A stretch of 64,000 nt of DNA, from NCBI GenBank assembly GCA_947581805.1, contig CANPVM010000001.1, positions 249,712 to 313,711 on the forward strand. Reading direction: 5' to 3'. Both the position numbers and the translations under genes were made by a program. The DNA is from an uncultured Clostridia bacterium. Its GTDB lineage: Bacteria > Bacillota > Clostridia > TANB77 > CAG-508. The notes below the pieces were generated by a model. That model saw nothing but the letters and a program-made list of their open reading frames with translations, had not been told where the DNA came from and searched no databases. Of the stretch, positions 17,626-61,315 are shown piece by piece; position 1 is the first letter of the stretch; each line of letters begins with the position of its first letter.

Positions 17626-17626
17626 A

Positions 17627-19852: not shown

Positions 19853-19892
19853 ATCAAAGTATTACAAAATTTCTCAAAATCACTTGTCAAGC

Positions 19893-19910: not shown

Positions 19911-20205
19911 ATCAGTTTAAGATTTATCCTCGTAACTAGCAAAATAAAAGGTTATATTAATTAACTAAAACCAAATTTTATAATTTATTCCGAAACTACC
20001 ATTATATCCTGAAGGTATAGAAATCTTGTTTTATCTTCAATAATTCTTCCATATTCAATTAATTTAGTATCATATATACACATAATAAATACAATGTATT
20101 TTTAATTAATATTTTCAAAATATAACAAGAATTGACAAGAAAACACAAATTTATATTTTAATAATCAAAAATATATGATAGAATATAACAAAGGAGGAGA
20201 TAGAA

Positions 20206-20961: not shown

Positions 20962-21060
20962 AAGAAGAAAACTATTGACAACAAACAAATGTTTATATAT
21001 AATAAAAACAAAAGAATAATATAAAATAATAACAAGAAAACAAAAAGGAGTACTACATAA

Positions 21061-22260
21061 ATGATAGAAAAAACAGTTTGTGAATTATTTGCAGGAGTTG
21101 GAGGATTTAGATTAGGACTAGAAAAAGAAAATCCAGAATGGAATACCGTATGGGCCAATCAATGGGAACCAGGAAAGAAAAACCAATATGCCTTCGATTG
21201 CTATGTATCACATTTTGGTGAAAGCGAAAACTATGTTAATGAAGATATTGCAAATGTAGATAAAAATATTATTCCAGAACACAATCTATTAGTAGGCGGA
21301 TTTCCTTGCCAAGACTATTCAGTAGCAAGAACAGGGGCAGAAGGAATCGATGGAAAAAAGGGAGTACTATGGTGGCAAATTAGAGATATATTAGAAAAAA
21401 AGCAACCTAAATTTGTACTATTAGAAAATGTTGATAGACTATTGAAATCACCAACAAAACAGAGAGGAAGAGACTTTGGTGTTATATTAGCATGCTTTAA
21501 TGATTTAGGATATAGTGTGGAATGGAGAGTAATCAATGCAGCAGATTATGGATTTGCCCAAAAAAGAAGAAGAACATTCATATATGCAACGAAAAATAGC
21601 ACTACTTATTACAATTCAATAAAAAATAAAAGCTTTGAAGAAATTATCCATAAAGATGGTTTTTTTGCCAAAGAATTTAAAATACAAGAGAATACAAAAG
21701 GAATTGCGCAAGAATTCAAATATAAAGATATATATGAAGTATCAGACAATTTTAAAATGGCATTTGAAAACGCAGGAATTATGAAAGATAATCAGATATA
21801 TATAGAAAAAGTAGAACCTAAATATATTGAGCCAACAAAATTAAGAGAAGTACTGGAAGAAGATGCAGATAAAAAATATTATGTAGTAGGAAATATAGAA
21901 AAATGGAAAGAATTAAAAGGTCCTAAAAAAATTGATAGAGTAAGCAAAACAGGATTTAAATATGTCTTTTCAGAAGGTGGCATGTTATTTCCAGATGCAT
22001 TAGATAGGCCAGCTAGAACTATGCTAACAAGTGAATCTAGCGTTAATAGAAGCTCTCATATAATAGAAGATCCAAAGAAAAAAGAATTAAGAATATTAAC
22101 TCCAATAGAAGCAGAAAGGATAAATGGATTTGATGACAACTGGACAAATACAGGAATGCCAGAAAAATTTAGATATTTCTGTATGGGAAATGCCTTAGTA
22201 GTTGGATTAATAGAAAAAATGGCAAATAGATTAGATGATATATTTGCACAAGAAAATTAA
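21061..22260 (+). CDS. DNA (cytosine-5)-methyltransferase (Dcm/type II m5C MTase)
   Basis: Motif I 'FAGVGGFRLGL', motif IV 'GGFPCQDYS', motif VI 'LLENVDRLL', motif VIII 'FIYAT' region, C-terminal 'GNALVVGL'; RBS aaaggag. Confidence 0.9.
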   Translation: MIEKTVCELFAGVGGFRLGLEKENPEWNTVWANQWEPGKKNQYAFDCYVSHFGESENYVNEDIANVDKNIIPEHNLLVGGFPCQDYSVARTGAEGIDGKKGVLWWQIRDILEKKQPKFVLLENVDRLLKSPTKQRGRDFGVILACFNDLGYSVEWRVINAADYGFAQKRRRTFIYATKNSTTYYNSIKNKSFEEIIHKDGFFAKEFKIQENTKGIAQEFKYKDIYEVSDNFKMAFENAGIMKDNQIYIEKVEPKYIEPTKLREVLEEDADKKYYVVGNIEKWKELKGPKKIDRVSKTGFKYVFSEGGMLFPDALDRPARTMLTSESSVNRSSHIIEDPKKKELRILTPIEAERINGFDDNWTNTGMPEKFRYFCMGNALVVGLIEKMANRLDDIFAQEN

Positions 22261-23930: not shown

Positions 23931-25472
23931 ATGTTATCAATTGTAAAAAGTATGTCACTAAGTGGTCTAGATGGCTATCTTGTTTCTGTGCAAGTAGATG
24001 TTTCCGCAGGTATTCCTGCATGGGAAATCGTGCGGACTTCCTGATACTAGTGTCAGAGAATCCAAAGAAAGAGTAAAAACAGCTATTAAAAATTCTGGCT
24101 ATGAATTATTAAGTAGAAAAATTGTAGTGAATTTAGCTCCAGCCGATACCAAAAAAGAAGGTTCTTTCTTTGATTTACCAATTGCCATTGGAATCTTAAC
24201 CTGTCTTGGAGAAATTAGGCAAAGTAAACTAGAAAACATAGCGTTTCTAGGCGAGTTATCTTTAGACGGAAGTTTAAATCAAATCAATGGAATTTTACCT
24301 ATGTGTATTGAAGCAAAAAAGTTAGGAATTGAAAAAATGGTAGTGCCAATACAAAATGCCAAAGAAGCGGCAGTGGTAAAGGGTATTCAAATTATTGGCG
24401 CAAATACTCTGAGCCAAGCAGTAGAATATTTAAATGAAAGAGAAGATATTAAGCCATATGAAATAAATATGGAAGAATTATACCAAGAGGCAGAAGAGGA
24501 GAAATTTGACTTTTGCGAAGTAAAAGGTCAAGAAAATATTAAAAGGGCAATTGAAGTAGCAGCAGCTGGTGGTCACAATATTCTACTAATTGGAAATCCA
24601 CGGCTCACGGAAAAACCATGATGGCAAGAAGAATTCCATCTATTTTACCAGATTTAAGTTTTGAAGAAGCCTTAGAAACAACAAAAATACATAGTGTGGC
24701 AGGTCTTTTAAGCAAAGAGATCCCATTTATTATGGCAAGGCCATTTCGTGCGCCACACCATACTATTTCTACCACCTCTTTAGTAGGTGGAGGCAGAATT
24801 CCAAAACCAGGAGAAATTAGTTTAGCTCATCATGGAGTTTTATTTTTAGATGAACTGCCAGAATTCCAAAAAAGTACTTTAGAAGTAATGCGTGGACCAT
24901 TAGAAGATAAATTAGTAACAATAGCAAGAGTAAATAGTACACTAACATACCCTTGTAATTTTATGCTAGTTGCTTCTATGAATCCGTGCCCTTGTGGCTT
25001 TTATGGCTCCAAGCAAAAAGAATGTACTTGTCAGCCACAAGCTATTAATAAATATTTAGCTAAAATTAGTGGTCCATTATTAGATAGAATAGACATTCAA
25101 ATTGAAGTATCTTCAGTAAGTTATCATCATTTAAAAAAAGATACACCAGAAGAAACTTCAATGCAAATAAAGAAAAGAGTAAATGAGGCAAGAAAAATAC
25201 AATTAGAAAGGTATAAAGAAGAAGGTATTTATTCTAATAGCGAATTAACACCTAAATTACAAGAAAAATACTGTGCTTTAGGAAAAGAAGAAAGCATGCT
25301 TTTAAAGCAAGCATTTGATAGTTTAAATTTAAGTGCAAGAGCTTATGGCAGAATTCTAAAAGTAGCAAGGACTATTGCAGATTTAGACAGAAAAGAAAAT
25401 ATAGAAGTTTCCCATATTGCAGAAGCTATTCAATATAGAAGTTTAGATAAAAAATATAGGAAAGTTATATAA
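23931..25472 (+). pseudogene. comM: comM/yifB (Mg-chelatase-like AAA+ competence protein) split by three single-C insertions (24033, 24601, 24608)
   Basis: Frame 1 'MLSIVKSMSLSGLDGYLVSVQVDVSAGIPAWEIV' then stop. Deleting c24033 restores '...EIVGLPDTSVRESKERV'. Walker A reads 'GNPRLTEKP*' but is 'GNPGSGKTMMARR' after removing c24601 and c24608. C-terminal half 24618-25472 carries 'GVLFLDELPEF' sensor region. Confidence 0.8.
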
Positions 25473-25529: not shown

Positions 25530-26417
25530 TTGACAGATAAAAAATATCCAGAAAAATTAAGAACAATTAAAAATCCACCTCAAAAATTATATGTAATGGG
25601 AGATGCAAATTTATTAAATAAGCAAAGTATTGCCATTGTAGGAAGTAGAGATGCAAGTGAATATGGAAAGAAATATGCTGCCCTGTTTTCTAATAGCATT
25701 GCTCATTCTAATATTGCAGTGGTAAGTGGTCTAGCCGTAGGAATTGATTCTATTGCACATCAAAATGCAATGAAAGAAAAAGGGAAAACAATTGCAGCAA
25801 TTGCGTCTGGTTTTTCACATATGTATCCAAAAGAAAATATTCCATTATATCAAGCAATATTAAAAAATGGAGGTTGTATTGTTAGCGAATATCCACCAGA
25901 AACAAAACCAAATATGCAGGCATTTCCTATGCGAAACCGTATTATTGCAGGGTTATCTATGGCAGTGATTGTTATAGAAGCTAAACACCGAAGTGGTAGT
26001 AGTATTACAGCAAGGCATGCATTACAACAGAAAAAACAAGTATTTTGTCTTCCTCACAGTATAGAAGATAAGAATGGTGTAGGTTGTAACCGCTTACTAA
26101 AAAATGGAGCAAAAATAATTACTAAGGCATCTGAATTACAAAATTACCTAAGTATTACCATTAAAGACACAAATCCTTTCAAAGAAAGTACGCAGTCTTT
26201 TTTACCAATTACGTCAGTAGAACAAGATTATCAGCCAATTTATCAAGTATTATTAAATGGGCCAATGGACAATAACCAATTAGCTCAAACATTAAAATGT
26301 TCTATCTCTCATGTTAACCAGATGCTTACTATCATGGAATTAAAAGGTTATATTGAAGCAATACCAGGAAATGAATTTCAAATAAAGCAATATACGAAAG
26401 GAATAGAACAAAAATGA
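25530..26417 (+). CDS. dprA: DNA-processing protein DprA (Smf), short form lacking N-terminal SAM-like domain
   Basis: 'YPEKLRTIKNPPQKLYVMGD...SIAIVGSRDASEYGKKYAALFSNSIAHSNIAVVSGLAVGIDSIAHQ' Rossmann-like DprA core; C-terminal winged-helix-like tail; in-frame stop upstream of TTG start. Confidence 0.85.
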   Translation: MTDKKYPEKLRTIKNPPQKLYVMGDANLLNKQSIAIVGSRDASEYGKKYAALFSNSIAHSNIAVVSGLAVGIDSIAHQNAMKEKGKTIAAIASGFSHMYPKENIPLYQAILKNGGCIVSEYPPETKPNMQAFPMRNRIIAGLSMAVIVIEAKHRSGSSITARHALQQKKQVFCLPHSIEDKNGVGCNRLLKNGAKIITKASELQNYLSITIKDTNPFKESTQSFLPITSVEQDYQPIYQVLLNGPMDNNQLAQTLKCSISHVNQMLTIMELKGYIEAIPGNEFQIKQYTKGIEQK

Positions 26418-48303: not shown

Positions 48304-48483
48304 ATGTTAAATGAAGAAATTTGTAAGTTAAGAGAAAAATTAAATGAAAGTATAATTACAGGGCAAGACTACATGATAACATATAAGCTTAGTATAGAAT
48401 TAGATGAATTAATTGCGGAATATTACAGAAATAATAAAAATGCAGAAAAGAAAAAAGAAAAAAATTGTGTTTTAGTAAAGTAA
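48304..48483 (+). CDS. Spo0E-like sporulation regulatory protein (aspartyl-phosphate phosphatase family)
   Basis: 59 aa 'MLNEEICKLREKLNESIITGQDYMITYKLSIELDELIAEYY' fits the Spo0E-like pattern (I...R..L.......S.E.D.LI..YY); RBS aagggagggg. Confidence 0.65.
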   Translation: MLNEEICKLREKLNESIITGQDYMITYKLSIELDELIAEYYRNNKNAEKKKEKNCVLVK

Positions 48484-48627
48484 ATATGGTGAGCCTAAGA
48501 TTTTCTTAAAATTTATATTTTATAGAAAAATCTTAGGCTTGCTTTTTTCTTTTGAAAAAAGTTGAAAAAAAAAAGCAAATAGAGTATAATGAAAATAGAT
48601 AGTTCATAAAATGAATGGAGGCTTATA

Positions 48628-48978
48628 ATGAAACTAAAAAAAATAGTAACAATCATTACAATTTTATTTTTATTATTAAATACAATTTGCCTGGCAAAAG
48701 TAGATACAGATGCATATAAACCAAATGATTTAACAAATAATGATTATGAAAAAGCATTTGCAATGACAGGAAAAATTGTAAATGGACTTACTTTAATAGG
48801 AACTGTAATTGCAATTATAGGCATTATGATATTAGGAATTAAATACATGATTGGAAGTGTAGAAGAAAAAGCAGAGTATAAAAAAACAATGATACCTTAT
48901 TTAGTAGGATGTATTTTTATTTTTGCAATTACACGAATTGTTTCTATTATCTATAGTTTAGTGGTACAAATACAATAA
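48628..48978 (+). CDS. VirB2/TrbC-like pilin paralog 1 (signal peptide + two hydrophobic helices separated by EEKAEYKKTMIPY loop)
   Basis: 116 aa. Conserved C-terminal block 'G(I/L)xxMGIKYMIGSxEEKAEYKKTMIPYxVGxIxIFAxT' shared by all three paralogs. Topology matches conjugative pilins. Confidence 0.55.
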   Translation: MKLKKIVTIITILFLLLNTICLAKVDTDAYKPNDLTNNDYEKAFAMTGKIVNGLTLIGTVIAIIGIMILGIKYMIGSVEEKAEYKKTMIPYLVGCIFIFAITRIVSIIYSLVVQIQ

Positions 48979-49007
48979 AAAGTAGTAAAATACGGGGAAG
49001 TGATAAA

Positions 49008-49493
49008 ATGAAAAAATACATAAAACTAATTTATATTTTATTTATTGTAATAACAATGGTTATGATTTCTAGTCAGGTATATGCAGCACAATGTCCTGTA
49101 TGTAACGGAACAGGACATCCGCCAGGTTCTTCTGGAGTTAAATGCCCAAGATGCAATGGAACAGGAACCATAGCAATATCTGAGCATACAGCAGGAGAAA
49201 TTATAGACGAAGCAGGAACATTTATTCAAAAAGGAGAAAGTGGAGCAGAAGGTAAAATTTCACAAAGTGACTTACAAGATTTATCCAATACTATATATAA
49301 CATACTTCTAGTAGTAGGAATTGTGGTAGCAGTTATAGCAGGGTTGATTATGGGTATCAAATTTATTATGGGAGGCATAGAAGAAAAGGCAGAAATAAAA
49401 AATATGCTTATTCCATATATTATAGGATGTATCGTTGTATTTGGAGCTTTTACAATTTGGAAAATTGTAGTAGAACTATTACAATCTATGTAA
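49008..49493 (+). CDS. VirB2/TrbC-like pilin paralog 2 with DnaJ-type CxxCxGxG double zinc-finger insertion
   Basis: 161 aa; 'CPVCNGTGHPPGSSGVKCPRCNGTGT' in the variable mature N-terminal region; same conserved C-terminal two-helix block. Confidence 0.55.
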   Translation: MKKYIKLIYILFIVITMVMISSQVYAAQCPVCNGTGHPPGSSGVKCPRCNGTGTIAISEHTAGEIIDEAGTFIQKGESGAEGKISQSDLQDLSNTIYNILLVVGIVVAVIAGLIMGIKFIMGGIEEKAEIKNMLIPYIIGCIVVFGAFTIWKIVVELLQSM

Positions 49494-49582
49494 AAAAATG
49501 AAAAAATAACTAAAAAATGGTTGAAAAATAAAAAAAAGTATTGTATAATAAAAATTAGTAAATAAAGAGGAGGAAAATTTAT

Positions 49583-49960
49583 ATGAAAAAACAAGTAAAA
49601 GTAGTATCTATTATATTAATGGTAATAATGGTATTAACATCATTAACTAGCATAGTATTAGCAGCACCAGATCTTTCTGGCAAAATAGATGAAATAGGAC
49701 AAGGAAATGCAAATGCAAATACTGGTAAAATTATAACACTTGGTCAAACAGTTGTTACCATTATGCAAACAGTAGGTATTGTAGTAGCAGTAGTAGTATT
49801 ATTAGTATTAGGTATTAAATACATGATGGGTAGTGCAGAAGAAAAAGCAGAATATAAGAAAACAATGATTCCATATGTAGTAGGTGCTATTCTAATTTTC
49901 GCAGCTACAACTATCGTAAATGTTGTTTATCAATTAGCTAATGGATTAAATGTACAATAA
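49583..49960 (+). CDS. VirB2/TrbC-like pilin paralog 3
   Basis: 125 aa; signal peptide 'MKKQVKVVSIILMVIMVLTSLTSIVLAAP'; conserved C-terminal block 'LGIKYMMGSAEEKAEYKKTMIPYVVGAILIFAATT'. Confidence 0.55.
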   Translation: MKKQVKVVSIILMVIMVLTSLTSIVLAAPDLSGKIDEIGQGNANANTGKIITLGQTVVTIMQTVGIVVAVVVLLVLGIKYMMGSAEEKAEYKKTMIPYVVGAILIFAATTIVNVVYQLANGLNVQ

Positions 49961-49999: not shown

Positions 50000-50027
50000 A
50001 AAAATGCACAAAAAGTGCATTTTTTTT
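50000..50027 (+). terminator. weak terminator/attenuator after pilin genes (atgcac/gtgcat + T8)
   Basis: 6-bp stem plus long T-run; followed by TTGTAA...TATATA promoter-like sequence. Confidence 0.4.
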
Positions 50028-50117: not shown

Positions 50118-50465
50118 ATGGGAACTTATAATATACCAAGAAATGTAAAAGGAGAAGGTAGAATACTATTTGTTTTTTCTACAAAAAGTTTAATTTATAG
50201 TGCAATAGGAGCAGTAATAGGATTACCATTTTACTTTTTATTTTCGGCTTTGAATTTAACAATAGTAGGAATGGGGGTTATGGCTATTATAGCTTTTATT
50301 GGTTTTATCATTGGTACCTTTAAATTTCCAGAAATAGCCGCATTACCATTCACAAAAAAAATAGGTGGCGAAAATATTGATGATATTATTATGAGAGCAA
50401 TTAAGTTTAAACGAAAAGGCAATAGAGTGTACATATATACTAAGGAGGAAGAAAAAAATGGATAG
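50118..50465 (+). CDS. VirB3-like small two-TM T4SS protein (PrgI/TcpE-like)
   Basis: ATG 50118 after RBS gagaggag; 115 aa with two adjacent TM helices; immediately upstream of VirB4 region. Confidence 0.45.
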   Translation: MGTYNIPRNVKGEGRILFVFSTKSLIYSAIGAVIGLPFYFLFSALNLTIVGMGVMAIIAFIGFIIGTFKFPEIAALPFTKKIGGENIDDIIMRAIKFKRKGNRVYIYTKEEEKNG

Positions 50466-51660
50466 TATTGAATTATTAACAGTTATTTTAACAGTGATTT
50501 TGGGCATTATGGTAATGCTACTAATAATTTTAGGAGTAGTTTACTTCACTTCCAAAACAAAATCAAATACTATAAAAGAAGAGAATAAAAACAAAGAACA
50601 AAAGAAAAAAGTAAAAAAGTGTAAAGAATATACAACAGAGTCAATCATGAATTTTATGGAATTTGATACCGTAGTAGACAATATGATTTCTCAAAAAGAT
50701 GGAATGCGTTATATTATGGTAGTAGAATGTCAAGGAATTAACTATGATTTAATGTCAGAAGTAGAAAAAAATTCAGTAGAAGAGGGATTTGTTCAATTTT
50801 TAAATACTTTAAGGCATCCAGTACAAATTTATACTCAAACAAGAACTATTAATTTAAATAGTAGTATTCAAACTTATAAAGATAAAATAAAAGATATTCA
50901 ATACGCATTAGAAAAACAAGAAATGCAATATAATCAAATGGTACGTTCTGAAAATTATACACAAGAAGAGCTAAATAAAGCTTATTTTGAATTAACAAAG
51001 CAAAGAAATTTATATGAATATGGTAAAGATATTATATATAATACAGAGAAAATGAGTTTAAATAAAAATGTATTGAATAAAAAATATTATGTTGTCATTC
51101 CATACTTTGTAGAAGAATTAGAAGATAGTAATTTTGATAAAGAAGAAGAAAGAAATATGGCATTTTCTGAATTGTATACAAGGGCACAATCTGTAGTAAG
51201 GACTTTAGGCGTTTGTGGAATCAATGCAAGAGTTATGACTTCTAATGAATTAGTAGAATTATTATATATGGCTTATAATAGAGACGAAGCAGAAGTATAT
51301 GGACTAGATAAAGCACTAAAAGCAGGATATGATGAATTATATACAACAGCACCAGATGTAATAGACAAACAGATGAAAGCATTAGATAAAGAAATAGAAG
51401 AACAAGCACTAGCCAAAGCAAAAGAAAAAGTAAGTCAAGCAAAATCTGAAAAACAAAAAGCATTACAGGGAAAGAAAGAAAAGAAAAGAGATTTAATTGA
51501 TGAATTGGCTAAGCTAATGATACAAGAAAATGTGCAAATATTAGGAACTGATATTGCAGAAAATGCAATTCAAAAAATTGAACAAGAGAAAAAAGGAGGA
51601 ACAAAAGAAGATGGCAAAAAAACTAGACAAACAAGAGCTAGAAAAACAAAGACAGCTTAA
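50458..51660 (+). CDS. T4SS-associated membrane-anchored protein (400 aa) with VirB4-N-terminal-like segment and coiled-coil C-terminus
   Basis: N-terminal TM; 'DGMRYIMVVECQGINYDLMSEVEKNSVEEGFVQFLNTLRHPVQIYTQTR' resembles the CagE/TrbE/VirB4 N-terminal motif (DG.l...w..G.D..a..e.....l...L...); overlaps VirB4 gene by 50 nt. Confidence 0.4.
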   Translation: MDSIELLTVILTVILGIMVMLLIILGVVYFTSKTKSNTIKEENKNKEQKKKVKKCKEYTTESIMNFMEFDTVVDNMISQKDGMRYIMVVECQGINYDLMSEVEKNSVEEGFVQFLNTLRHPVQIYTQTRTINLNSSIQTYKDKIKDIQYALEKQEMQYNQMVRSENYTQEELNKAYFELTKQRNLYEYGKDIIYNTEKMSLNKNVLNKKYYVVIPYFVEELEDSNFDKEEERNMAFSELYTRAQSVVRTLGVCGINARVMTSNELVELLYMAYNRDEAEVYGLDKALKAGYDELYTTAPDVIDKQMKALDKEIEEQALAKAKEKVSQAKSEKQKALQGKKEKKRDLIDELAKLMIQENVQILGTDIAENAIQKIEQEKKGGTKEDGKKTRQTRARKTKTA

Positions 51661-53584
51661 TAATGATTATTCTAATCCAGATGAATATCAAATTTTAAAA
51701 AGAAAAACCATTAAAGAGTTAATTGCTCCTTCTGGAATAGATGCAAGTAATATTGACCATTTAGAAATTATTTCTAATGTCACTAGATATGCAAGAAGTT
51801 TCTTTGTATCTACACTTCCAAGAATGGCAACTTTCCCAGAATTATTTAGAGATATGTACTTATTTGGAGATATTAATACTTCTATTTATATTAACCCAAT
51901 TGCAGAATCAAAATCACAAAACGAACTAAATAGAACAATTAATGAACTAGAAACAGAAAGAATTGTAGCAGCAGATAAAGGAAATATTAATAGGGAAAGT
52001 ACATTAGGACAAAAAAGATGGGAAGCGGAGCAATTAAGAGATGAAATTGCAGCAGGTTATAACAAATTATATGAAGCATCCATTGTATCTACTCTGTTTG
52101 CTTATAGTCTAGAAGATTTAAATAGATATACAAAATTATTAGCCTCTGAAATGTCAAAGTCATTAGTTGGAGTAAAAAGTGCTTGGGGAATGCAAGAAGA
52201 AGCTTTTCAAAGTAATTTACCATTAATGCAAGATAAAATGAAAAAAATCCATACTTTTGATAGACGTTCTATGGCAACTGTATTTCCATTTACTACTTCA
52301 GAAGTAGGACATCCAACAGGAATTCCACTAGGTTTTAATAAACAAACAGGAGTACCAATTTTATTTGATAACTTTCATTCTTCTTTAACTAATTATAATA
52401 TGGTTATCTTTGCAAAATCTGGTGCTGGTAAATCAGTTACAATGAAAACTTTAATTTCACGTTCTGCTGTATTAATGGGAATTCAAAGTTTAGCGCTAGA
52501 TGCTGAAGGTGAATATTCTATTGTAGCAGAAAGCTTAGGCGGAATTAATGTAGTAATTAGCCCAACTTCAAAAACAGTTATTAACTTATTTGATATTGAA
52601 CCAGAAATGATTAGAGATGAAATTACAGGAAAATCAAGAACAATTATAAATGTAGAAAATAAAGTAGAAGACGTAACGCAAGCTTTACTTACAATGGCAA
52701 GAGGTAGTACAAGATCACAAGAGGTAAATGAACTTACTAAACAGATTATATCAGAAGCTGTTGCAGAAGAATATGAAGCAATTCAAATTACCAGTGACCC
52801 ATCTAGTTTATATCAATCTGACACAATGAGTGGTGACATTTTAGGAAGACAAAAAAAGGATATGCCAACGATTGGTTCATGGTATAAAAGAATTTTAAAA
52901 AAAGCAGAAGAAAATACAAATGAAGATTATCAATTCCATTATAGCTATTTAATTAAAGTCATGAAACAATACATTCGTGAATATAATGGGCAAATGGCTT
53001 ATTTTGATGGACAATCCACCTTTGATTTATTAGATGGAACATTATTTATCAACTTAGATATTTCTCAACTAGAAGAAAGATTTGCAAGACCACTTGCACA
53101 ACAAATCTTACTTTCTTGGATTTGGGAAAAATACGTAAAAAAGAACAGTGAAGATAGAACAAAAGCTTCCAAAAAAAGAGTATTAGTAGATGAAGCATGG
53201 ATGTTACTTCCATACCCAGAAGCTGTAGACTTTTTAAACACAATGGCACGTCGTGCTAGAAAGAGAAATGTATCTTTAGCAATTATTTCTCAAAGATTCC
53301 AAGATTTCTATGAAAAGCCAGAAGCACAAGCAGTTTTAACTTCATCTGATACGAAGTTATTCTTAGCACAAGATAAATCCGAAATAGAATACTTAAAAGA
53401 AGTATTTAAATTAAGTTCTGGAGAAGCAAACTTTTTAGTAACTTGCTTTAAAGGAGAGGGACTTTTAAAAGTAGGAGCAGATACAGCTATTATTCAGATA
53501 AGACCAACGGCAAAAGAATTTGAATTTGTGGAAACAAATATCAACAAGTTGGTGCAAATGAACAAAAAAAGAGAGGAATACTAA
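51611..53584 (+). CDS. VirB4-family T4SS ATPase (TcpF/PrgJ/Orf16-type)
   Basis: Start ATG 51611 after RBS aaaggagga; N-terminus 'ELIAPSGIDASNIDHLEI...YARSFFVSTLPRMATFPELF'; Walker A 'FAKSGAGKSVT'; signature 'VLVDEAWMLL' (DEAW box). Confidence 0.85.
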   Translation: MAKKLDKQELEKQRQLNNDYSNPDEYQILKRKTIKELIAPSGIDASNIDHLEIISNVTRYARSFFVSTLPRMATFPELFRDMYLFGDINTSIYINPIAESKSQNELNRTINELETERIVAADKGNINRESTLGQKRWEAEQLRDEIAAGYNKLYEASIVSTLFAYSLEDLNRYTKLLASEMSKSLVGVKSAWGMQEEAFQSNLPLMQDKMKKIHTFDRRSMATVFPFTTSEVGHPTGIPLGFNKQTGVPILFDNFHSSLTNYNMVIFAKSGAGKSVTMKTLISRSAVLMGIQSLALDAEGEYSIVAESLGGINVVISPTSKTVINLFDIEPEMIRDEITGKSRTIINVENKVEDVTQALLTMARGSTRSQEVNELTKQIISEAVAEEYEAIQITSDPSSLYQSDTMSGDILGRQKKDMPTIGSWYKRILKKAEENTNEDYQFHYSYLIKVMKQYIREYNGQMAYFDGQSTFDLLDGTLFINLDISQLEERFARPLAQQILLSWIWEKYVKKNSEDRTKASKKRVLVDEAWMLLPYPEAVDFLNTMARRARKRNVSLAIISQRFQDFYEKPEAQAVLTSSDTKLFLAQDKSEIEYLKEVFKLSSGEANFLVTCFKGEGLLKVGADTAIIQIRPTAKEFEFVETNINKLVQMNKKREEY

Positions 53585-53602: not shown

Positions 53603-56272
53603 ATGAAAAATATTGCAAAAAAAAGCATACTACAAAAGATAACAATAACAATATTAACAGTTTTATTACTTTCTAATTTCATAGTTCCAACTTATTCTCA
53701 TGCCGATTGGGGAGGAGCATTAATGAGTCCTATAGTAGATTTACTTTGTTCTGTTGGAGACGTTGTGGTTAATTTACTACAAAAGTGTATGACAGGACAT
53801 TTTGCTAGTGTAGGTGCACCAGATTTTTCTTTTAATATGTTTATGGTAGAAGATGATGAGTTTTGGGCAAATGGGAGCGGGAGATATTCAGACTATATTA
53901 TAGATTCTGGAGAAGCTAAAAATATAGCTATTACAGAAACTATAAACGTAGATGCAAAAGATGCAAATGGAAAAGATATTGGTTTTGAAAAGGGATGGCT
54001 TAATGGATCAGATAAATATCATATTCCAATAGCAACTTATAGTCCAGAGCAAATATTTACAGGAAATGTATCAGGATTAGATATAAATTTCATTAACCCT
54101 GATAAATCTAAATTTGGAGAAACAACAGATAAAGAAGGAAATAAAATTGTAGATAGCTCAGCAGGAAGATTACAATCTACTATTGCCACATGGTATGTTG
54201 CATTACGTAACCTAACAGTAGTAGGTTTATTATCTGTATTAGTATATGTAGGAATTCGTATTATTCTATCAAGTACAGCTTCTGATAAAGCAAAATATAA
54301 GCAAATGTTAGTAGATTGGTTAATTGCATTATGCTTAGTCTTTTTCCTACATTATATTATGTCTTTTGTTTTAACAATGACAGAATCAATTTGTACGGCA
54401 ATAGGGCATGGTGCAACTGATATTTATGTACAAGTTCAATCAACAGATAATGGAGAAGGAATATTTAAAACAAATCTATTAGGTTTAGCAAGGTTTAAAA
54501 CGCAATATGCAGACTTTGGCCAAAAAATGGCTTATCTAATTATGTACTTAGCATTAGTAATATATACTTTAATTTTTACATGGTTTTACTTAAAAAGGTT
54601 ACTTATGATGGCATTTTTAACTCTAATAGCGCCAGTAGTTGCTCTTACATACCCAATAGATAAAATGAACGATGGAAAGGCACAAGCTTTTAATTCATGG
54701 TTAAAAGAATATGTATTTAATGCATTAATACAACCATTTCATTTAATTATTTATATGGTATTTGTAGGAAGTGCTATGGATTTAGCAACTACCAATATTA
54801 TTTATATGATTGCTGCTCTAGGCTTTATCCTATCAGCTGAAAAAATATTAAGAAAATTCTTCGGATTTGAAAAAGCAGGAGCAGGAACTTTAGGTGCATT
54901 AGCTAGTGGAGCAGCCATAGGTTCACTTGCGAAAAAGGCAATTGGAGGTGCAGGAAAGGCAGTCTCAGGAAAATCATCTGGAGGAAAAACAACAGAAGAA
55001 GGAGATAAACCACCAAGATTCGAAAGACGACATGATGTTTCTCAAATTGAAGCAAATAATAATATAGGCAGTGAAGATAATCAAATAGAAGAATCTAGTA
55101 TTCCTAATTCAGAATTAACTTCTCATGCTGATGAATTTGCAACACTATCTGGTGCTAGCCCAAGTGAAACTAATGCAGAATATGGAATAAATGAGAATAA
55201 TACTACTCCTTCTGGAATTATTTTACCAGATAGTTACATACAAAGACAACAACAAGAACAAGCAAGAAGAAATAGAGAACAGCAAGCACAAGAAGAAGCA
55301 GAAAGAATACAAAGAGCACAACAACAACCACAAGAACAACCACAACAACAGAATAGTAGACTTGCAAATTGGACACGAGCACATAATATTAATGGTCGTT
55401 CAGCAATGAAGTTAGTTGGAAGAGCGGCTAGATTTGCAACAAGGACTACATTTAAAGCAGGAGCAGGAACCTTAGCAGCGGCAGTAACATTAGCTAGTGG
55501 TGGAGGACTTGCAGGAGCAGCAGGTGCATTTGCTGTTGGATCAAGCGTTGGAGGAAGATTAGGAAATCGTGTTGCTGATGCAGGAGTAGCAATAGGAAGA
55601 GGAGCAGAAAGAGTAGTAAGAGCAGGAGAGATATATGCCCAAGCATCAACAGATGAAGAAGCTATAGAGGGAGCAAAAGATGCACTTTTTGCTGGAACAA
55701 GATTAGGACGAGAACTAGATTTAGCAAATGGAAATACAAGATATCAAACAGCAGGTGAAACGAGAGAATGGAAAAATAATCAAGATAATTTGAACTATCT
55801 AAGAGATCAAATGGCGGCTCAAAATGGTGGAGTTGTTCCATCAGCAAGAGATGTAAAAAATCAAATGAATTCTTTCGACCCATATTTAGCAGAAGGCTTA
55901 ACGGATATTAAACAAATGCTAAAAGCTCAAAAAGCAGAACAATTTGGAATTAGTGGTAAACAATCTGCTATTATTGCCGCAATAGGAAAAGAAAAGGGAA
56001 TTACAGCAGACGTATTAAATGATAATAAAAAAGCAGCAGCACAACAAGCAAATCTAAAACAAGACTTTATGAATAAGGGTTATTCAGCAGCGGATGCTGC
56101 AAGACAAGCAGACTATACCATGAATGTGCTAAAAGTACAAAATGGAGTAGCGCATAATTTACAGAAAGTTGAAAAACCAGCAGAAGCAAAGCCACAACAG
56201 TTACAACAGTCAAGTCAACCACAACAGGCAAGACAACCAAGACAACCAAGACAACCAAGACAAACTAAATAA
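53603..56272 (+). CDS. VirB6-like polytopic membrane protein (TcpH/PrgH-type) with Gly/Ala-rich and Gln/Pro-rich C-terminal tail
   Basis: 889 aa; signal peptide; block of about 6 TM helices (aa ~195-420); tail with 'QQQEQARRNREQQAQEEAERIQRAQQQPQEQPQQQ' and 'QQSSQPQQARQPRQPRQPRQTK'. Confidence 0.55.
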   Translation: MKNIAKKSILQKITITILTVLLLSNFIVPTYSHADWGGALMSPIVDLLCSVGDVVVNLLQKCMTGHFASVGAPDFSFNMFMVEDDEFWANGSGRYSDYIIDSGEAKNIAITETINVDAKDANGKDIGFEKGWLNGSDKYHIPIATYSPEQIFTGNVSGLDINFINPDKSKFGETTDKEGNKIVDSSAGRLQSTIATWYVALRNLTVVGLLSVLVYVGIRIILSSTASDKAKYKQMLVDWLIALCLVFFLHYIMSFVLTMTESICTAIGHGATDIYVQVQSTDNGEGIFKTNLLGLARFKTQYADFGQKMAYLIMYLALVIYTLIFTWFYLKRLLMMAFLTLIAPVVALTYPIDKMNDGKAQAFNSWLKEYVFNALIQPFHLIIYMVFVGSAMDLATTNIIYMIAALGFILSAEKILRKFFGFEKAGAGTLGALASGAAIGSLAKKAIGGAGKAVSGKSSGGKTTEEGDKPPRFERRHDVSQIEANNNIGSEDNQIEESSIPNSELTSHADEFATLSGASPSETNAEYGINENNTTPSGIILPDSYIQRQQQEQARRNREQQAQEEAERIQRAQQQPQEQPQQQNSRLANWTRAHNINGRSAMKLVGRAARFATRTTFKAGAGTLAAAVTLASGGGLAGAAGAFAVGSSVGGRLGNRVADAGVAIGRGAERVVRAGEIYAQASTDEEAIEGAKDALFAGTRLGRELDLANGNTRYQTAGETREWKNNQDNLNYLRDQMAAQNGGVVPSARDVKNQMNSFDPYLAEGLTDIKQMLKAQKAEQFGISGKQSAIIAAIGKEKGITADVLNDNKKAAAQQANLKQDFMNKGYSAADAARQADYTMNVLKVQNGVAHNLQKVEKPAEAKPQQLQQSSQPQQARQPRQPRQPRQTK

Positions 56273-56353: not shown

Positions 56354-57286
56354 ATGAATAAAATAATTAGGTACTTTAATCAAAATAGAAAAAAAATTAT
56401 TTTAGGAGTAGCGATAATAGTCTCTATTATTATTTTCATTCAAATATTAAACCAAATGGCAAAAAATCAGAAGGAAAAAAATAATACCATGATACCTCAA
56501 GAGGATTTATCTGATTTACCAATACAATCAATGATAACAGCAGAAACAGTAGATAAAGAAACAACACAGGAAAATGTAAACTTAGTAGAGCAATTTATTA
56601 ACTTATGTAATCAAGGTAATTCCAAAGAAGCATACAATATGCTATCAGAGGAATGCAAAACTGCATTATTTTCTACAGAAGAACAGTTTTTAAAAGGATA
56701 TTATAATATTATATTTACACAAACAAAATTATATGGAATACAAAACTTTCGTAATACATCTGGTTATTATACATATCAAGTTAAATTTTATAATGATGCT
56801 CTAGCAACAGGTAAAATGCAAGAGTCAGGTATATATCAAGACTATATTACAATTGATAAAAAACAAAATAAATTAAATATTAATAGTTTTATTCGAAAAC
56901 AAGAATGTAATAAAACAGTGGAAGAAAACGGAATACAAATTACAGTATTAAGTAAAGAAGTGTATAAAGAACATGAAAAGTATAATATTTTAGTAAAAAA
57001 TAATACCCAAAAGACAATTTTAATTGATACTAAAAAATCTACGCAAAGTGTATATGCTATTGGAAGTGACAATGGCAGATATGATTCTTTTATGTCTGAA
57101 ATTGCAGATAATTGGTTACGTATAGAGAAAGGTTTTACAAAAAATTATCAATTAAAAATTAATAAAATTTATAACCCTTCTGTTACCATAAGGGCAATCT
57201 GTTTTAGTGATATTGTAACAGACGAAGAAATGTATAAAAATGAAGTAGAAAGTAAAGAAAGGCTAAAAATAACAATAAATCTATAA
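56354..57286 (+). CDS. membrane-anchored extracytoplasmic protein, candidate VirB8-like (NTF2-like) T4SS component
   Basis: Single N-terminal TM followed by 280-aa soluble domain; position between VirB6-like and hydrolase genes as in Gram-positive T4SS loci. Confidence 0.35.
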   Translation: MNKIIRYFNQNRKKIILGVAIIVSIIIFIQILNQMAKNQKEKNNTMIPQEDLSDLPIQSMITAETVDKETTQENVNLVEQFINLCNQGNSKEAYNMLSEECKTALFSTEEQFLKGYYNIIFTQTKLYGIQNFRNTSGYYTYQVKFYNDALATGKMQESGIYQDYITIDKKQNKLNINSFIRKQECNKTVEENGIQITVLSKEVYKEHEKYNILVKNNTQKTILIDTKKSTQSVYAIGSDNGRYDSFMSEIADNWLRIEKGFTKNYQLKINKIYNPSVTIRAICFSDIVTDEEMYKNEVESKERLKITINL

Positions 57287-57300
57287 ATTAGGTGGTGAAT

Positions 57301-60021
57301 ATGGAAGATAACCAAAATAACGAAACAACACAAGAAAAGATAGAAGAAACTGTAAATGCGGCAAAAGATGCAAGTAAATTAGCAGCTAATGTAGCCTCAG
57401 GTAACGTGGCTGGAATAGCTAAAAATGCAATCAATCTTCTAAAAAACAAACAATTTCAAAAACAACTAAAAAAAGCATTAATTTTAGGTATGCTAAAAAT
57501 TATATTGTTATTTGTAGTTATAGCATCTATAGCGGGTATTTTATTTAGTATCTTTAATACAGTTACTGAAAAGCTAGCTGATATTGCTTCTCAAATAGGA
57601 GATTTTGCAAGTAATACATGGAGATGGATTACAGATAATTATTGGATTGATATTAATAAAGAGATTTTGATTACAGCAGAAGATGGAACACAAAAGACAC
57701 AAACAATTGTGGACCACTATATGGAACAATTAGAAACATTGGGAATTTCTTTACAAGACTTAAAATTACTTGGAGAGGCAGATTATAGTAATCCTAATTT
57801 ACTAGAAGATGAAAAAAGCAAAGCAATAGTACAAAAATATCTTTCTGAATTTGTTAAAGCAGATATCATATCACAAGAAATTCATCGTCAACATAGTGGC
57901 AATGATTTAGTTAATCCTTCTGATGAAGACGGAAGTGAAATAGACGGAGGAGTATATTTATATCGTACAATGAATGAAGTAACAACGGAAGGAACAATTG
58001 GCTTAGATAATTCAACCCTTGTCAGAATGGAATATACAGATTATAATACATTCAAAAAATATCTAACAGAGGTAGAATCATACAATAGAGATTATGATAA
58101 AGCAAAAAAAATGTTTACTATTGATGATCAAACAGGGAAACTATTATATTATCAAGTAAGTAGAAATTATGAAGATGATTCTGAAGATGTTAATATTACG
58201 GTTTCTCATCCAGAAGTAAATATAGAAGAGGTAACAGTAGATTATAAGCCACTAATTCAAAAATATGCTATGCCTTTTGAATTTTTAGTTAACTTATGTA
58301 TGATTACACAAAACCCAGAATATGTATATCATGTAGCACATTTAGCAAGAAATACAAATATTCAATTAGTAATATTAGATAGTATATATCAAGAAGATGT
58401 AGAAGAGAAAATCATAGGAGATTATGCAGAATACCAAAAAATAATACATTTAGATTCCGATGAAGAATCAGAAGGTGAAGAAGAATGGGAACAACTTGGA
58501 AGTCAACAAGATAGAGAATTTGAAAGCAAGGTAAAGTATAAAGTAAGCAGTACATCAGAAATAAAGGTTTTGAAAGTAGATACATGGTCTTATACACAAT
58601 TAAATACATTTACTAACCAAATCATTCCAGGCGCTAATGAAGGTACAAATAGTGAAACATTACCTGATGAAATAGAAAGTACAAGAGAACCTTTTGGACC
58701 AGCTTATCCAGATCTTTTATTAGAACAAAGGAAAGAAAAAACAAATCTTAAAAAAGAAACTACAATAACTAGTAAATCAAATGAGTATAGGGAAAATATT
58801 GTTGTAGATGAGATTATAAAAACAAAGCAATTTCTAGGATTACTTAGAAATGATACTGGCAAATGTTATAATGAAACATGTTATGCTAATAAAGAATCTG
58901 TACAAAGCTGTGTAGACCACGCAGTTTTCAATAAAAATGGATATAATGTAAGTTATAGAATACCAGGAAGTACACGTCAAGAAATGCCATTAAGTAAATT
59001 GCAAAGTGGAGCAGAAATGTTGTATGCATTATTAGAAATGCAGAATAATGACAATACAGACGAATTAAATAATTATAATCAAAAAATGCAAGGATTAAAA
59101 GAATATATTCAATATGTGCTAACATTCCCAGAAAATGAATCCGTTGACCTAAATGATGATGAGTTTAATGACTTCTTAAATAATTATGAGTATGGTAATG
59201 TTACCTATGGTATGTTTTGGTGGCCACTAGATCCAAATGCCGATGTAAGAATTTCATCTTTCTTTGGACCTCGTAGAGCACCAACTCCAACAGCATCTAC
59301 AAACCATGGAGCAATTGATATTGCAGTTGCAACAGGAACGGATGTCCTTGCTTCTGCTGATGGCGTAGTAGAATATGTTGGTTATGATCCAGATGGTTAT
59401 GGTAATTATGTGACAATTAATCATCAAAATGGCTATAAAACTAGATATGCACATAATAGTGAAATATTAGTTCAAACAAACGACATTGTAACAAGAGGGC
59501 AAGTGATTGCAAAATCTGGTTCAACAGGAAATTCAACAGGGCCACATCTACATTTTGAAATTCACTTAAATGGAACAAAGATAGACCCACTGGACTATGT
59601 TAGTATTACAAATAAACAGCCTATGGCAAGTACTTATACTGCTAATAGTTCAGAACAATTGGATATTATTTATGCAGTAGTAGCACAAGAATGTGCATCA
59701 AGTTATGAAGGAGCATTAGCTGTTATTAGTTGTGTATTAAATCGTTGTGAATCTCCTGCATGGCAAGCATATGGTGGACATGACCCATATAGACAAATTA
59801 CTTTTTCTGGACAATTTGCTTATTCAGAATTAGTAGATAGCGGGCAACACTATAAGCAATATTTAGGGGGAAAAGCACCAGACTATGTTAAACAAGCAGT
59901 AGATGATGCACTAACAAAAGGTATTCGAAACCATACTTATACAAGATTCAGAACTAATACAGAACAATGTAGAAAAGACCATCCAATTGGAACAGATATA
60001 GGTGGAAATTGGTATTTCTAA
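57301..60021 (+). CDS. T4SS-type peptidoglycan hydrolase (VirB1/PrgK/TcpG-like): N-terminal TM, M23 (LytM) peptidase domain + C-terminal SleB-like (Hydrolase_2) domain
   Basis: M23: 'HGAIDIAVATGTDVLASADGVVEYVG...YGNYVTINH...YAHNSE...GSTGNSTGPHLHFEI'. SleB-like: 'AVVAQECASSYEGALAVISCVLNRCESPAW...ITFSGQFAY'. Start ATG 57301 after RBS aggtgg. Confidence 0.75.
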   Translation: MEDNQNNETTQEKIEETVNAAKDASKLAANVASGNVAGIAKNAINLLKNKQFQKQLKKALILGMLKIILLFVVIASIAGILFSIFNTVTEKLADIASQIGDFASNTWRWITDNYWIDINKEILITAEDGTQKTQTIVDHYMEQLETLGISLQDLKLLGEADYSNPNLLEDEKSKAIVQKYLSEFVKADIISQEIHRQHSGNDLVNPSDEDGSEIDGGVYLYRTMNEVTTEGTIGLDNSTLVRMEYTDYNTFKKYLTEVESYNRDYDKAKKMFTIDDQTGKLLYYQVSRNYEDDSEDVNITVSHPEVNIEEVTVDYKPLIQKYAMPFEFLVNLCMITQNPEYVYHVAHLARNTNIQLVILDSIYQEDVEEKIIGDYAEYQKIIHLDSDEESEGEEEWEQLGSQQDREFESKVKYKVSSTSEIKVLKVDTWSYTQLNTFTNQIIPGANEGTNSETLPDEIESTREPFGPAYPDLLLEQRKEKTNLKKETTITSKSNEYRENIVVDEIIKTKQFLGLLRNDTGKCYNETCYANKESVQSCVDHAVFNKNGYNVSYRIPGSTRQEMPLSKLQSGAEMLYALLEMQNNDNTDELNNYNQKMQGLKEYIQYVLTFPENESVDLNDDEFNDFLNNYEYGNVTYGMFWWPLDPNADVRISSFFGPRRAPTPTASTNHGAIDIAVATGTDVLASADGVVEYVGYDPDGYGNYVTINHQNGYKTRYAHNSEILVQTNDIVTRGQVIAKSGSTGNSTGPHLHFEIHLNGTKIDPLDYVSITNKQPMASTYTANSSEQLDIIYAVVAQECASSYEGALAVISCVLNRCESPAWQAYGGHDPYRQITFSGQFAYSELVDSGQHYKQYLGGKAPDYVKQAVDDALTKGIRNHTYTRFRTNTEQCRKDHPIGTDIGGNWYF

Positions 60022-60034: not shown

Positions 60035-61315
60035 GTGAATTTAAAAAAAGGAATGCTTATTATCCTTAGTATAATTATTATTTTAATTGTAATATTAATG
60101 GTTATCCTCACTTTGCCAAAAAAAGAAAAGTTGCAACAATCAGAACAAAGACAAGATGGTGCAGAAAATGTAATAATAGAATATGAAAAAATAGCAAAAG
60201 TAAAAGACAGAAATACTTTCTTTACAATAGCATCTTGCATTGATCAATATTTAATCAAAGTTCTTAGCAAAGATACACAAAGTATTTATAATTTGCTATC
60301 TGTGGAGTATATTACAAAAAATCAAATTACGTTAGATAATGTATTAAGTAAGGTAGAAAGTTATAGCAAACCACAAATCTTTTCTGGCAAAGCAATGTAT
60401 GAAGTAAATAACACAGACAGGTTATCTACTTACTATGTAGAAGGAACCATTCGAGATGATGTATTTGGAGAGCAATATTCAAAAGGAACACCAATAAAAA
60501 TAGCGGTACAAATAGACAAAGTAAATAAAACATATGCAATTTTACCGAACGAAACTGTACCAGTTTCATTTAACGAAATACCAAAAACTACAATTACTAA
60601 TATAGAGCCAAAAGGAGTAAATATTTATTACAGCACAAATATGTTAGATACGCAAATGGCAAGCATGTATTTAAAAGATTATGCTAAACTTTTAAATACA
60701 AATATTGAAGAAGCTTATAGTAAATTACAAGAAGAATATAGACAAAAAAGATTTCCAACAAAAGAATCTTTAGAAGAATATGTAAAAATAAAAAAAGACT
60801 ATGTATTAGAGCCACAAGCTAAATCAGTTAGTGTGTCAAAAACAGAGCAAGAAACAATCTATACTATAAGAGATTATTATGGAAATAGATATATTATAAA
60901 AGAAACTGCAGTATTAGATTATACAATAGAATTAGATGACTATACTTTAGAAAATACTACATTTGAAGAAACCTATGCAAAATCCAATAATAGGGATAAA
61001 GGTTTATTGAATGCAGATAAATTCTTTGAAATGATTAATATGCAAGATTTTGAAAGTGCATACTCTTTATTAGATAGTAACTTTAAACAAAATCAGTTTA
61101 AAACCCAACAAGCTTTTGAAACTTATATAAAAGAAAATTTATTTATGCTAAATACAGTAAATTATATAGAATATAATAGTCAAATTGTAGGGATTCATAC
61201 ATACAAGGCTATTGTAACAGATGCAACAGAACAAAGCAAAAAAGAAGTTACATTGAATATAGTTATAAAATTGTTAGAAGGAACAGATTTTGTTATGTCA
61301 TTTTCAATCAATTAA
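60035..61315 (+). CDS. membrane-anchored extracytoplasmic protein (426 aa), T4SS cluster-associated
   Basis: GTG start after RBS aaggagg; N-terminal TM; soluble remainder; followed by terminator. Confidence 0.4.
   Translation: MNLKKGMLIILSIIIILIVILMVILTLPKKEKLQQSEQRQDGAENVIIEYEKIAKVKDRNTFFTIASCIDQYLIKVLSKDTQSIYNLLSVEYITKNQITLDNVLSKVESYSKPQIFSGKAMYEVNNTDRLSTYYVEGTIRDDVFGEQYSKGTPIKIAVQIDKVNKTYAILPNETVPVSFNEIPKTTITNIEPKGVNIYYSTNMLDTQMASMYLKDYAKLLNTNIEEAYSKLQEEYRQKRFPTKESLEEYVKIKKDYVLEPQAKSVSVSKTEQETIYTIRDYYGNRYIIKETAVLDYTIELDDYTLENTTFEETYAKSNNRDKGLLNADKFFEMINMQDFESAYSLLDSNFKQNQFKTQQAFETYIKENLFMLNTVNYIEYNSQIVGIHTYKAIVTDATEQSKKEVTLNIVIKLLEGTDFVMSFSIN

Follow-up and report, generated by a model that had tools for sequence, protein, structure and literature searches.

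Three tandem VirB2-like pilin paralogs, one with a putative zinc-knuckle head, in a conserved chromosomal type IV secretion locus of TANB77 Clostridia

In a review and a genomic survey, both from 2025, the type IV secretion systems (T4SSs) of Gram-positive bacteria are said to lack VirB2 and VirB5, save those of Patescibacteria (PMC12102498, PMC12857230). In the latter, 2-11 divergent VirB2-like pilins accompany relaxase-less chromosomal VirB3, TrsD, VirB4 and VirB6; the system is essential in Southlakia, and one of the two papers leaves open whether the arrays were borrowed from Gram-negative bacteria (PMC12102498, PMC12857230). Here, we analysed a locus of comparable make-up in a member of TANB77, an uncultured, reduced-genome, gut-associated order of Clostridia. 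The locus lies in a 64-kb stretch of contig CANPVM010000001.1 (positions 249,712 to 313,711 of the forward strand), called the window below, in which all coordinates of this genome are given. At its head stand three tandem genes for small VirB2/TrbC-type pilin-like proteins, named P1, P2 and P3, to which an earlier note on this DNA had drawn attention. Our preferred explanation, which we hold to be moderately probable, is that the three proteins are Sec-exported VirB2/TrbC-type subunits of a fixed, vertically inherited chromosomal T4SS of TANB77, belonging neither to a plasmid nor to an integrative and conjugative element (ICE), and that this system has a contact function.

The closest analogue is found in Patescibacteria such as Southlakia epibionticum and Nanosynbacter lyticus, which are likewise reduced-genome monoderms with a chromosomal system and no linked relaxase. 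The gene repertoires agree as well, each combining a tandem divergent VirB2-like array with VirB3/PrgI, TrsD-like, VirB4 and VirB6 genes. The two differ in that the TANB77 host is a Firmicute (Clostridia), that its array is almost fixed at three as compared to 2-11, and that its system has a cell-wall hydrolase and pilins with modular N-terminal heads, including a predicted zinc knuckle. Gram-negative VirB2/TrbC/TraA pilins (PF04956) resemble the trio in signal peptide, two helices, short charged loop and linkage to VirB3 and VirB4, whereas the TANB77 system, unlike the Gram-negative T4SSs, operates without an outer membrane, VirB5, VirB7, VirB9 or VirB10. We know of no characterised VirB2 pilin with a long N-terminal extension or a metal-binding head.

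Among Firmicutes, TraB of pIP501 and TrsB of pMRC01-like plasmids are T4SS proteins with a cleaved signal sequence, two helices and a conserved short cytoplasmic loop, encoded near VirB4 as the trio is (PMC9083827, PMC10221548). Unlike the trio, they are single-copy, belong to conjugative plasmids with a relaxase and a coupling protein and have no variable heads, and no pilus has been proposed for them. The earlier note had held that pilin genes are generally undescribed in Firmicutes conjugation systems; this agrees with the reported absence of VirB2, but goes too far in view of TraB (pIP501), TrsB (pUC11B) and an NCBIfam pilin-like family of Mycoplasma ICEs. For TANB77 itself, Kim et al. (2024) described a Tad-type pilus locus as “exclusively conserved” in the order (PMC11680825), and our literature search returned no paper linking TANB77 to a T4SS. 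The Tad locus is, as we read the present one to be, a conserved chromosomal surface-appendage locus containing several pilin-like genes with their own promoters, but it encodes CpaB, TadZ, CpaE, CpaF and TadB/C, and its products are type IV-pilin-like proteins with one N-terminal transmembrane (TM) helix (PMC11680825). We considered whether the trio might be the published “conserved pilin of TANB77” and rejected this, because that locus is Tad-type; T4SS/VirB2-like genes are not mentioned in the paper (PMC11680825).

The three open reading frames (ORFs) lie in tandem on the + strand exactly where the earlier note had placed them: P1 (116 aa) at 48628..48978, described by Pfam, hydropathy and a segment map; P2 (161 aa) at 49008..49493, by Pfam, AlphaFold2 (AF2) and homologue alignment; and P3 (125 aa) at 49583..49960, by Pfam and homologue comparison. 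All of them exceed the gathering cut-offs of both pilin hidden Markov models (HMMs), PF18895 (T4SS_pilin, 26.6 bits) and PF04956 (TrbC/VirB2, 27.9 bits), with 36.2 and 33.4 bits for P1, 31.2 and 32.7 bits for P2, and 43.1 and 42.1 bits for P3, respectively. The corresponding E-values, 1e-7 to 4e-11, are far from chance, and the VirB2-like identity proposed in the earlier note is borne out by this search. The trio also weakly matches the NCBIfam “pilin-like conjugal transfer protein” family of Mycoplasma ICEs. Small proteins with two hydrophobic helices could also be holins, bacteriocin-immunity proteins or unrelated small membrane proteins; however, no such family was matched in Pfam, NCBIfam or PHROGs, the pilin families scored above threshold, and no locus lacks the linkage of these genes to VirB3 and VirB4. 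The HMM results refute this idea, to which we attach virtually no probability. No holin or immunity family matched better than the pilin families, the outcome against which the earlier note had set its own assignment.

The paralogy of the three genes is visible in the DNA, where a repeat scan found a repeat of 165 nt common to all of them, and overall identity between their two-helix cores amounts to 43-56%. The shared block GIKYM(I/M)GSxEEKAEYKKTMIPYxVG, previously described as near-identical in the three proteins, is so between P1 and P3, while P2 has a looser version, GIKFIMGGIEEKAEIKNMLIPYIIG. The mature N-terminal parts comprise 27 aa in P1, 70 aa in P2 and 30 aa in P3. They are variable, although not wholly “unrelated” as had been claimed, since the P2 part includes a helix (HTAGEIIxEAxxFI...) conserved across the P2 family. 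The observation of three VirB2-type pilin-like paralogs, one with a CxxCxGxG pair, is confirmed, and the interpretation first given to it is partly supported.

Hydropathy and segment maps give each pilin a K-rich n-region, a hydrophobic core and an A-x-A-like end, followed by a hydrophilic segment and two hydrophobic helices. The signal peptides, predicted to end at CLA/K in P1, VYA/A in P2 and VLA/A in P3 (the slash marks the cut), are probably cleaved. P1 has a variable exposed N-terminus of the DxYKPNDLT..DY motif family, and its helices are joined by the loop GSVEEKAEYKK. In P2, the order is signal peptide, zinc-knuckle head, conserved amphipathic helix (HTAGEII…) and two-helix core. The AF2 model of P2, built with 55 homologues, has a mean predicted local distance difference test (pLDDT) score of 82 and helices at residues 62-77, 86-121 and 124-160; a signal helix is followed by a coil and bridge over the Cys motifs (pLDDT about 63-80) and by the hairpin 86-121/124-160 (pLDDT >90). 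A lipoprotein reading of the P2 Cys was rejected: the first Cys lies 2-4 residues past YA/A in homologues, and the residues at -1 (Q, T, V, I, R, K) misfit a lipobox as judged by eye.

The string CPVCNGTGHPPGSSGVKCPRCNGTGT, which the earlier note had reported, is present in P2 at residues 29-54. Within it, the putative zinc-knuckle module, CPVCNGTG-x9-CPRCNGTG (residues 29-53; 49092..49166, + strand), was delineated by HMM, DnaJ alignment and repeat scan. Its two CxxCxGxG motifs (residues 29-36 and 46-53) start two residues past the predicted cleavage site, and the two half-sites are a 26-nt internal DNA duplication. A phmmer search of PDB sequences aligned the Cys module to repeats 1-2 of the Cys-rich domain of E. 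coli DnaJ (1exk) with an E-value of 3e-4, and the spacing, CxxCxGxGxxPGxxxxxCxxCxGxG, is identical to that of DnaJ repeats 1-2. The layout of DnaJ proper, with four repeats and two zinc centres, is not found in P2, which has two repeats only; the homologue P0045 carries three. With no more than two half-sites in P2, one Zn(Cys)4 centre is most plausible, and the motifs most likely form a single predicted Zn(Cys)4 knuckle rather than two fingers. In anti-TRAP, just two CxxCxGxG motifs are used for one zinc. Of the “DnaJ-type double zinc finger” first proposed, therefore, the DnaJ/anti-TRAP-like CxxCxGxG pair stands, while the double finger gives way to one site, which is what two motifs suit. 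The positive-inside rule and VirB2 topology would place the module outside the cell, where the P2 head may bind zinc. This sets P2 apart from DnaJ and anti-TRAP (RtpA), which are cytosolic: its module has two repeats against the four of DnaJ, is sub-threshold, and is predicted to be extracytoplasmic on a pilin-like membrane protein.

We compared 91 related loci, taking 10 kb on either side of each, together with the 64-kb window of this genome. Two or more CxxC motifs occur in 29 of 120 P2-family homologues, most of which keep all four Cys, and also on at least 12 P1-type pilins; single-Cys losses were seen in the variants P0014 and P0391. Within the 91 loci, no ORF other than those of pilins carries the double CxxCxGxG. 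On a tree of the conserved P2 core the zinc head is patchy, with at least 11 gains or losses, and the identity of the P2 core is the same with or without it. This patchiness, together with the occurrence on two paralog families (P2 and P1), indicates that the zinc knuckle has been shuffled as a module and represents one head among several alternatives. To our knowledge, no pilin-like scaffold with an exchangeable extracellular head of the Zn(Cys)4-knuckle type has been described before.

The best 80 of these loci were picked by VirB4 similarity, so that the median VirB4 identity is inflated; a comparison in loci found independently of VirB4, of which there are few, lessens this bias. In these independent loci, identity to the window is 93-94% for VirB4, 94-97% for NrdD, 86-89% for NrdG, 82-85% for YqeY and 67-89% for the M16 peptidases, as compared to 56-74% for P3, 58-76% for P2, 45-72% for P1, 48-71% for the VirB6-like protein and about 32% for the hydrolase. 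Within the pilins, identity to the window is high in the loop GSxEEKAEYKK of P1 and P3, at 81-94% (P2, 50%), and falls to 17-26% in the exposed mature N-termini of these two proteins; for the zinc-insert segment of P2, the median is 0%. The VirB4 motor is thus very strongly constrained, whereas the parts exposed outside the membrane all evolve rapidly. The N-terminal diversification proposed in the earlier note was found throughout, the mature N-termini being hypervariable and modular across loci.

Exactly three pilin genes are present in 65 loci, and a few loci have two, four or six. It had been suggested that related loci might vary in paralog number; the number is nearly constant at three, and it is the N-terminal head that varies instead. 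The pilin at position 3 measures 117-146 aa across loci, two mis-started ORFs aside, and the top 120 P3 homologues all reach full length (122-131 aa), with an identity of 70% or more. Positions 1 and 2, on the other hand, span 114-584 aa because their N-terminal inserts differ: the head may be missing altogether, or consist of a short acidic peptide, Ser/Gly/Thr-rich linkers, a domain of 90-500 aa or the zinc knuckle. Domains that span 250-500 aa and for the most part look helical are found at the N-terminus in L051 (5590-7344), L037 (6012-7265), L078 (438-1598) and L015 (6605-7744), those of L037 and L051 being related. Unusual arrays include six tandem pilin genes in L087 (322-3144), four each in L015 (5660-8325), L076 and L077, and one 242-aa ORF in L085 (426-1154) that resembles two fused pilins. 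Public metagenomes also contain “poly-pilins” (P0241, P0242 and P0369) of 362-1147 aa, with 4-11 tandem VirB2-like hairpins behind one signal peptide.

With one genome scanned per species, at least 533 species genomes were found to encode a close VirB4 relative. The best 80 of these relatives are 83-94% identical, and nearly all come from uncultured gut “Clostridia” or “Clostridium sp.” metagenome-assembled genomes. The VirB4-positive genomes include two complete chromosomes of 1.57 and 1.70 Mb, and one of the loci (L031) belongs to the isolate UMGS1663, whose genus, UMGS1663, is placed in the GTDB order TANB77. The flank nrdD-nrdG-rpsU-yqeY-M16-M16-Spo0E recurs in contigs found independently, through P2 homologues; its M16-M16-Spo0E part is present in 60-67 of the 91 loci, the remainder being contig ends, and the guanine-plus-cytosine (GC) content of the locus is that of its flanks. 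Since the same housekeeping flanks recur across species, we regard the locus as a vertically inherited core chromosomal feature and not a mobile element.

The earlier note had implied the ordinary pilin genes of an ICE or a plasmid, and the VirB4 and PrgI families are indeed typical of Gram-positive conjugative elements, with the nearest plasmid relatives on Clostridium plasmids. However, many species have the locus at the identical site, flanked by the same housekeeping genes, GC content equals that of the flanks, and VirB4 is 41% identical to its best plasmid match. A Pfam scan of ORFs of at least about 100 aa across the window detected no relaxase, coupling-protein or integrase family, nor does the precomputed annotation of the related loci examined include a relaxase or a coupling protein. 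A tblastn search of P3 against 72,556 plasmids gave no match. An ICE or plasmid origin is largely refuted and, in our estimate, highly improbable; what had been taken for a conjugation system or mobile element is a T4SS with a fixed place in the chromosome, and neither in the locus nor next to it was a relaxase or coupling-protein family detected.

The plasmid relatives are clusters of C. botulinum and C. beijerinckii (for example, p12/29, NZ_KT897275), which, in the same order as the TANB77 locus, combine a small pilin-like gene, a small membrane protein, a ~330-aa protein, VirB4 (DUF87), a ~860-aa protein and a hydrolase. The ~860-aa protein has an embedded pilin-like segment, and the plasmids are typed as non-mobilizable. 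These clusters differ from the TANB77 locus in being plasmid-borne, in their VirB4 (41% identical), in having a single sub-threshold pilin-like gene and in lacking a zinc head. The genes of the p12/29 cluster (7060-15536) are annotated as hypothetical or DUF87, and an ALP/ParM-type actin-like gene and a tyrosine recombinase lie upstream.

The pilin genes adjoin genes for VirB3, VirB4 and a VirB6-like protein, and the order pilin-VirB3-VirB4-VirB6-like is kept in 84-91 of the 91 loci. On the + strand of the window, the VirB3 equivalent is a PrgI family protein at 50118..50465 (PF12666, 37.2 bits; cut-off 27). It is followed at 50458..51660 by a 400-aa bitopic TraC-like protein (PF26593) with one N-terminal TM segment, identified by Pfam and NCBIfam, and at 51611..53584 by a 657-aa VirB4-type ATPase identified by HMM; the ORF of the TraC-like protein (50458-51660) overlaps the VirB4 start (51611). 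The TraC-like protein weakly matches the Mycoplasma ICE VirB4 model NF045975 at positions 79-410 (E 2.7e-4), and this faint resemblance to the N-terminal part of a VirB4, the defining property of TrsD, makes it a candidate TrsD-like protein. VirB4 thus appears to be split into a TrsD-like protein and an ATPase, as in Patescibacteria and pGO1-type systems. The ATPase seems to represent a distinct subfamily, as its best NCBIfam models (the CD1110 family and Mbov_0397) both score below cut-off.

The VirB6 position is taken by an 889-aa polytopic membrane protein (53603..56272, + strand), recognised by weak T4SS_pilin and pLS20_p028 matches and by its TM segments; its VirB6-like assignment, like the TrsD-like one above, is tentative, both being drawn from weak matches. 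The protein contains an embedded VirB2-like helix-loop-helix at about aa 190-258 (nt ~54170-54376) and a long low-complexity C-terminal region. The hairpin matches T4SS_pilin with an E-value of 6e-4 and P3 with a BLASTP E-value of 5e-5 (GIRIILSSTASDKAKYKQMLVDW vs GIKYMMGSAEEKAEYKKTMIPY), and orthologues in about 45 loci and on the C. botulinum plasmid also match pilin HMMs. The assembly platform may in this way contain a pilin mimic of its own.

A second explanation, a specific version of our preferred one, is that the machine is a DNA uptake or exchange apparatus, comparable to Helicobacter ComB or the Ced/Ted systems of archaea, with the pilins forming a filament that captures or conducts DNA. 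Its VirB2, VirB3, VirB4 and VirB6-like proteins come without a detected relaxase or coupling protein, as in ComB and Ced, VirB4 weakly matches CedD, and genes for ComEA, DprA and ComM are present in the window. However, these three are widespread in Firmicutes with or without a T4SS, ComM is split here, and hypervariable protein heads are not obviously needed for DNA binding, so that we consider this version quite improbable. The competence-type genes encode ComEA (SLBB + HHH_3), ComM/YifB (Mg-chelatase-like) and DprA (7546-8199; 23998-25469; 25530-26414); ComM/YifB falls into two adjoining ORFs, possibly through a frameshift or as a pseudogene.

The trio looks like a transcription unit of its own, in the order terminator, promoter, P1-P2, second promoter, P3, terminator, all signals lying on the + strand. 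The repeat scan found a hairpin with 20-nt arms and an 8-nt loop followed by a T-run at 48492..48539, the likely terminator of the upstream Spo0E-like gene, which would mark the 5' boundary of the unit. A promoter-like TTGAAA-17-TATAAT (11 of 12 matches) lies upstream of P1 at 48562..48590; a pattern of this kind precedes P1 in 51 of 65 loci, which is weak evidence in AT-rich DNA. By pattern match, a second promoter-like TTGAAA-17-TATAAT lies directly 5' of P3 and its ribosome-binding site at 49521..49549, and the promoter regions of P1 and P3 are duplicated, with 79% identity. The Shine-Dalgarno sequence of P3 (AGGAGG) is the strongest of the trio. A terminator-like hairpin and T-run, again found by pattern match, separates P3 from the VirB3 gene at 50000..50024, and under lenient criteria a comparable structure follows P3 in 62 of 65 related loci. 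Invertible promoters or shufflon switching were considered and rejected: the repeat scan shows no convincing inverted repeats at the promoters, and what it returned are AT-rich chance pairs and terminator hairpins only. The Spo0E-like gene directly 5' of the unit (48304-48483) encodes a 59-aa phosphatase, and a Spo0E-like homologue lies upstream in about 60 of the 91 loci, an association that may reflect regulation or simply synteny.

Following our preferred explanation, the cleaved pilins would sit in the membrane as a helical hairpin, with the charged loop GSxEEKAEYKK in the cytoplasm and the free N-terminus outside. The VirB4 motor and the VirB6-like platform would extract the subunits and stack them into a surface filament or a wall-spanning conduit. 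In the solved F-type and T pili, as we understand their build, the loop lies inside and the N-termini point outward; a filament of the TANB77 subunits would be arranged likewise, its inner face lined by the conserved loop and its N-termini turned to the outside. P3 is the probable major subunit because it has a constant length, the best conservation, the strongest ribosome-binding site and its own promoter, while P1 and P2 would be accessory subunits whose exposed N-termini serve as exchangeable heads. The zinc knuckle could be a small rigid head for binding, or could lend stability in the gut lumen. Because no relaxase or coupling-protein family was detected nearby and the ATPase shows housekeeping-like conservation, we propose a non-conjugative, fitness-critical contact function, with uptake, exchange with other cells and adhesion to them as candidates. 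The heads would set what is recognised, or would diversify to evade phage and antibody. Filament formation, the division into major and minor subunits and the function of the machine are what we infer from genes and models, and in a contact or adhesion-and-exchange function we have moderate confidence.

Alternatively, the three proteins may be VirB2-like channel components that never polymerise outside, with heads that contact the cell wall or parts of the machine. TraB of pIP501 and TrsB of pUC11B, VirB2/CagC-family proteins of Gram-positive conjugation with a signal peptide and two TM helices and no known pilus, are precedents for this, and the pilin-like hairpin embedded in the VirB6-like protein suggests that pilin-type helices can be static channel parts; evidence of a filament is absent for the trio. 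Against this stand the three paralogs kept in almost every species, their hypervariable N-termini with modules of up to about 500 aa, the separate unit bounded by promoter and terminator, and the single weak pilin-like gene of the closest plasmid system. Paralog number, hypervariable heads and a unit of their own fit displayed or high-copy subunits better than channel parts of fixed stoichiometry. We take the channel to be the main alternative, a real possibility although an unlikely one.

Several points weigh against the displayed, filament-forming subunits that we favour. No experiment shows a filament in any Firmicute, and TraB of pIP501, which has the same topology and is essential for transfer, has no known pilus (PMC9083827, PMC10221548). 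Fold searches with the P2 model returned generic helical hairpins only, as expected for such a shape, and thus do not confirm a pilin fold structurally; for P3, a phmmer search of PDB sequences yielded chance matches only. The zinc module scores below the Pfam thresholds of DnaJ_CXXCXGXG (27.0 vs 32.7 bits) and anti-TRAP (27.7 vs 32), and P2 reaches 28.5 bits against the cut-off of 65 for NCBIfam RtpA. Promoters and terminators were called as pattern matches in DNA of 27% GC, and a relaxase or coupling protein could be encoded elsewhere in the genome.

A TANB77 core, highly conserved T4SS locus, and a DnaJ-type zinc knuckle as an interchangeable extracellular head, appear to be undescribed. 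The locus links a pilin array to a monoderm-type T4SS in Firmicutes, fixed chromosomally across the order, with a motor conserved like ribonucleotide reductase. It would make TANB77 a second, independent reduced-genome monoderm lineage that keeps a T4SS with pilins and no detectable relaxase, and the origin of the array is testable by phylogeny. By analogy with Patescibacteria, it is conceivable, though in our opinion decidedly doubtful, that TANB77 relies on a relaxase-less T4SS and pilin filament for a contact-dependent life, in which it might attach to partner cells, exchange with them or take up from them, with the heads, the presumed extracellular zinc knuckle included, recognising partners or ligands. 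The pilin-bearing T4SS of Patescibacteria would then have its Firmicute counterpart in TANB77, and might even have originated there. If true, a contact-dependent life would explain why TANB77 has resisted cultivation. The abundance of TANB77 predicts the response to checkpoint immunotherapy, and its Tad-type pilin activates dendritic cells; given this clinical link, a second hypervariable, presumably surface-exposed set of pilin-like proteins would be relevant to host recognition. The trio could also serve as strain or species markers.

The remaining genes of the locus follow the VirB6-like gene on the + strand. A 310-aa bitopic protein of no known family (56354..57286) occupies what may be a VirB8-like position, kept in 74 of the 91 loci. 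Next to it is a 909-aa cell-wall hydrolase with an M23 peptidase domain assigned by Pfam (57292..60021), a candidate for a VirB1-type role; in other loci the hydrolase keeps its position and swaps its catalytic domain, with Peptidase_M15_4 and/or Phage_lysozyme2 in L005 (18176-) and L009 (18015-). The last two genes, analysed by HMM and hydropathy, encode a 426-aa bitopic protein of no known family (60035..61315), whose position is conserved among the loci, and a 525-aa soluble, highly charged protein with no family and no TM segment (61432..63009), the latter being the last gene before the housekeeping Peptidase_S11 gene.

Elsewhere in the window, a stretch of low GC content (25-27%) at about 8935-22260 looks like a defence island. 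It includes genes for Mrr_N/NOV_C, MazG-like, Schlafen-group-3-type helicase, MqsA-SocA/Panacea antitoxin-like and C-5 cytosine methylase proteins, along with family-less ORFs.

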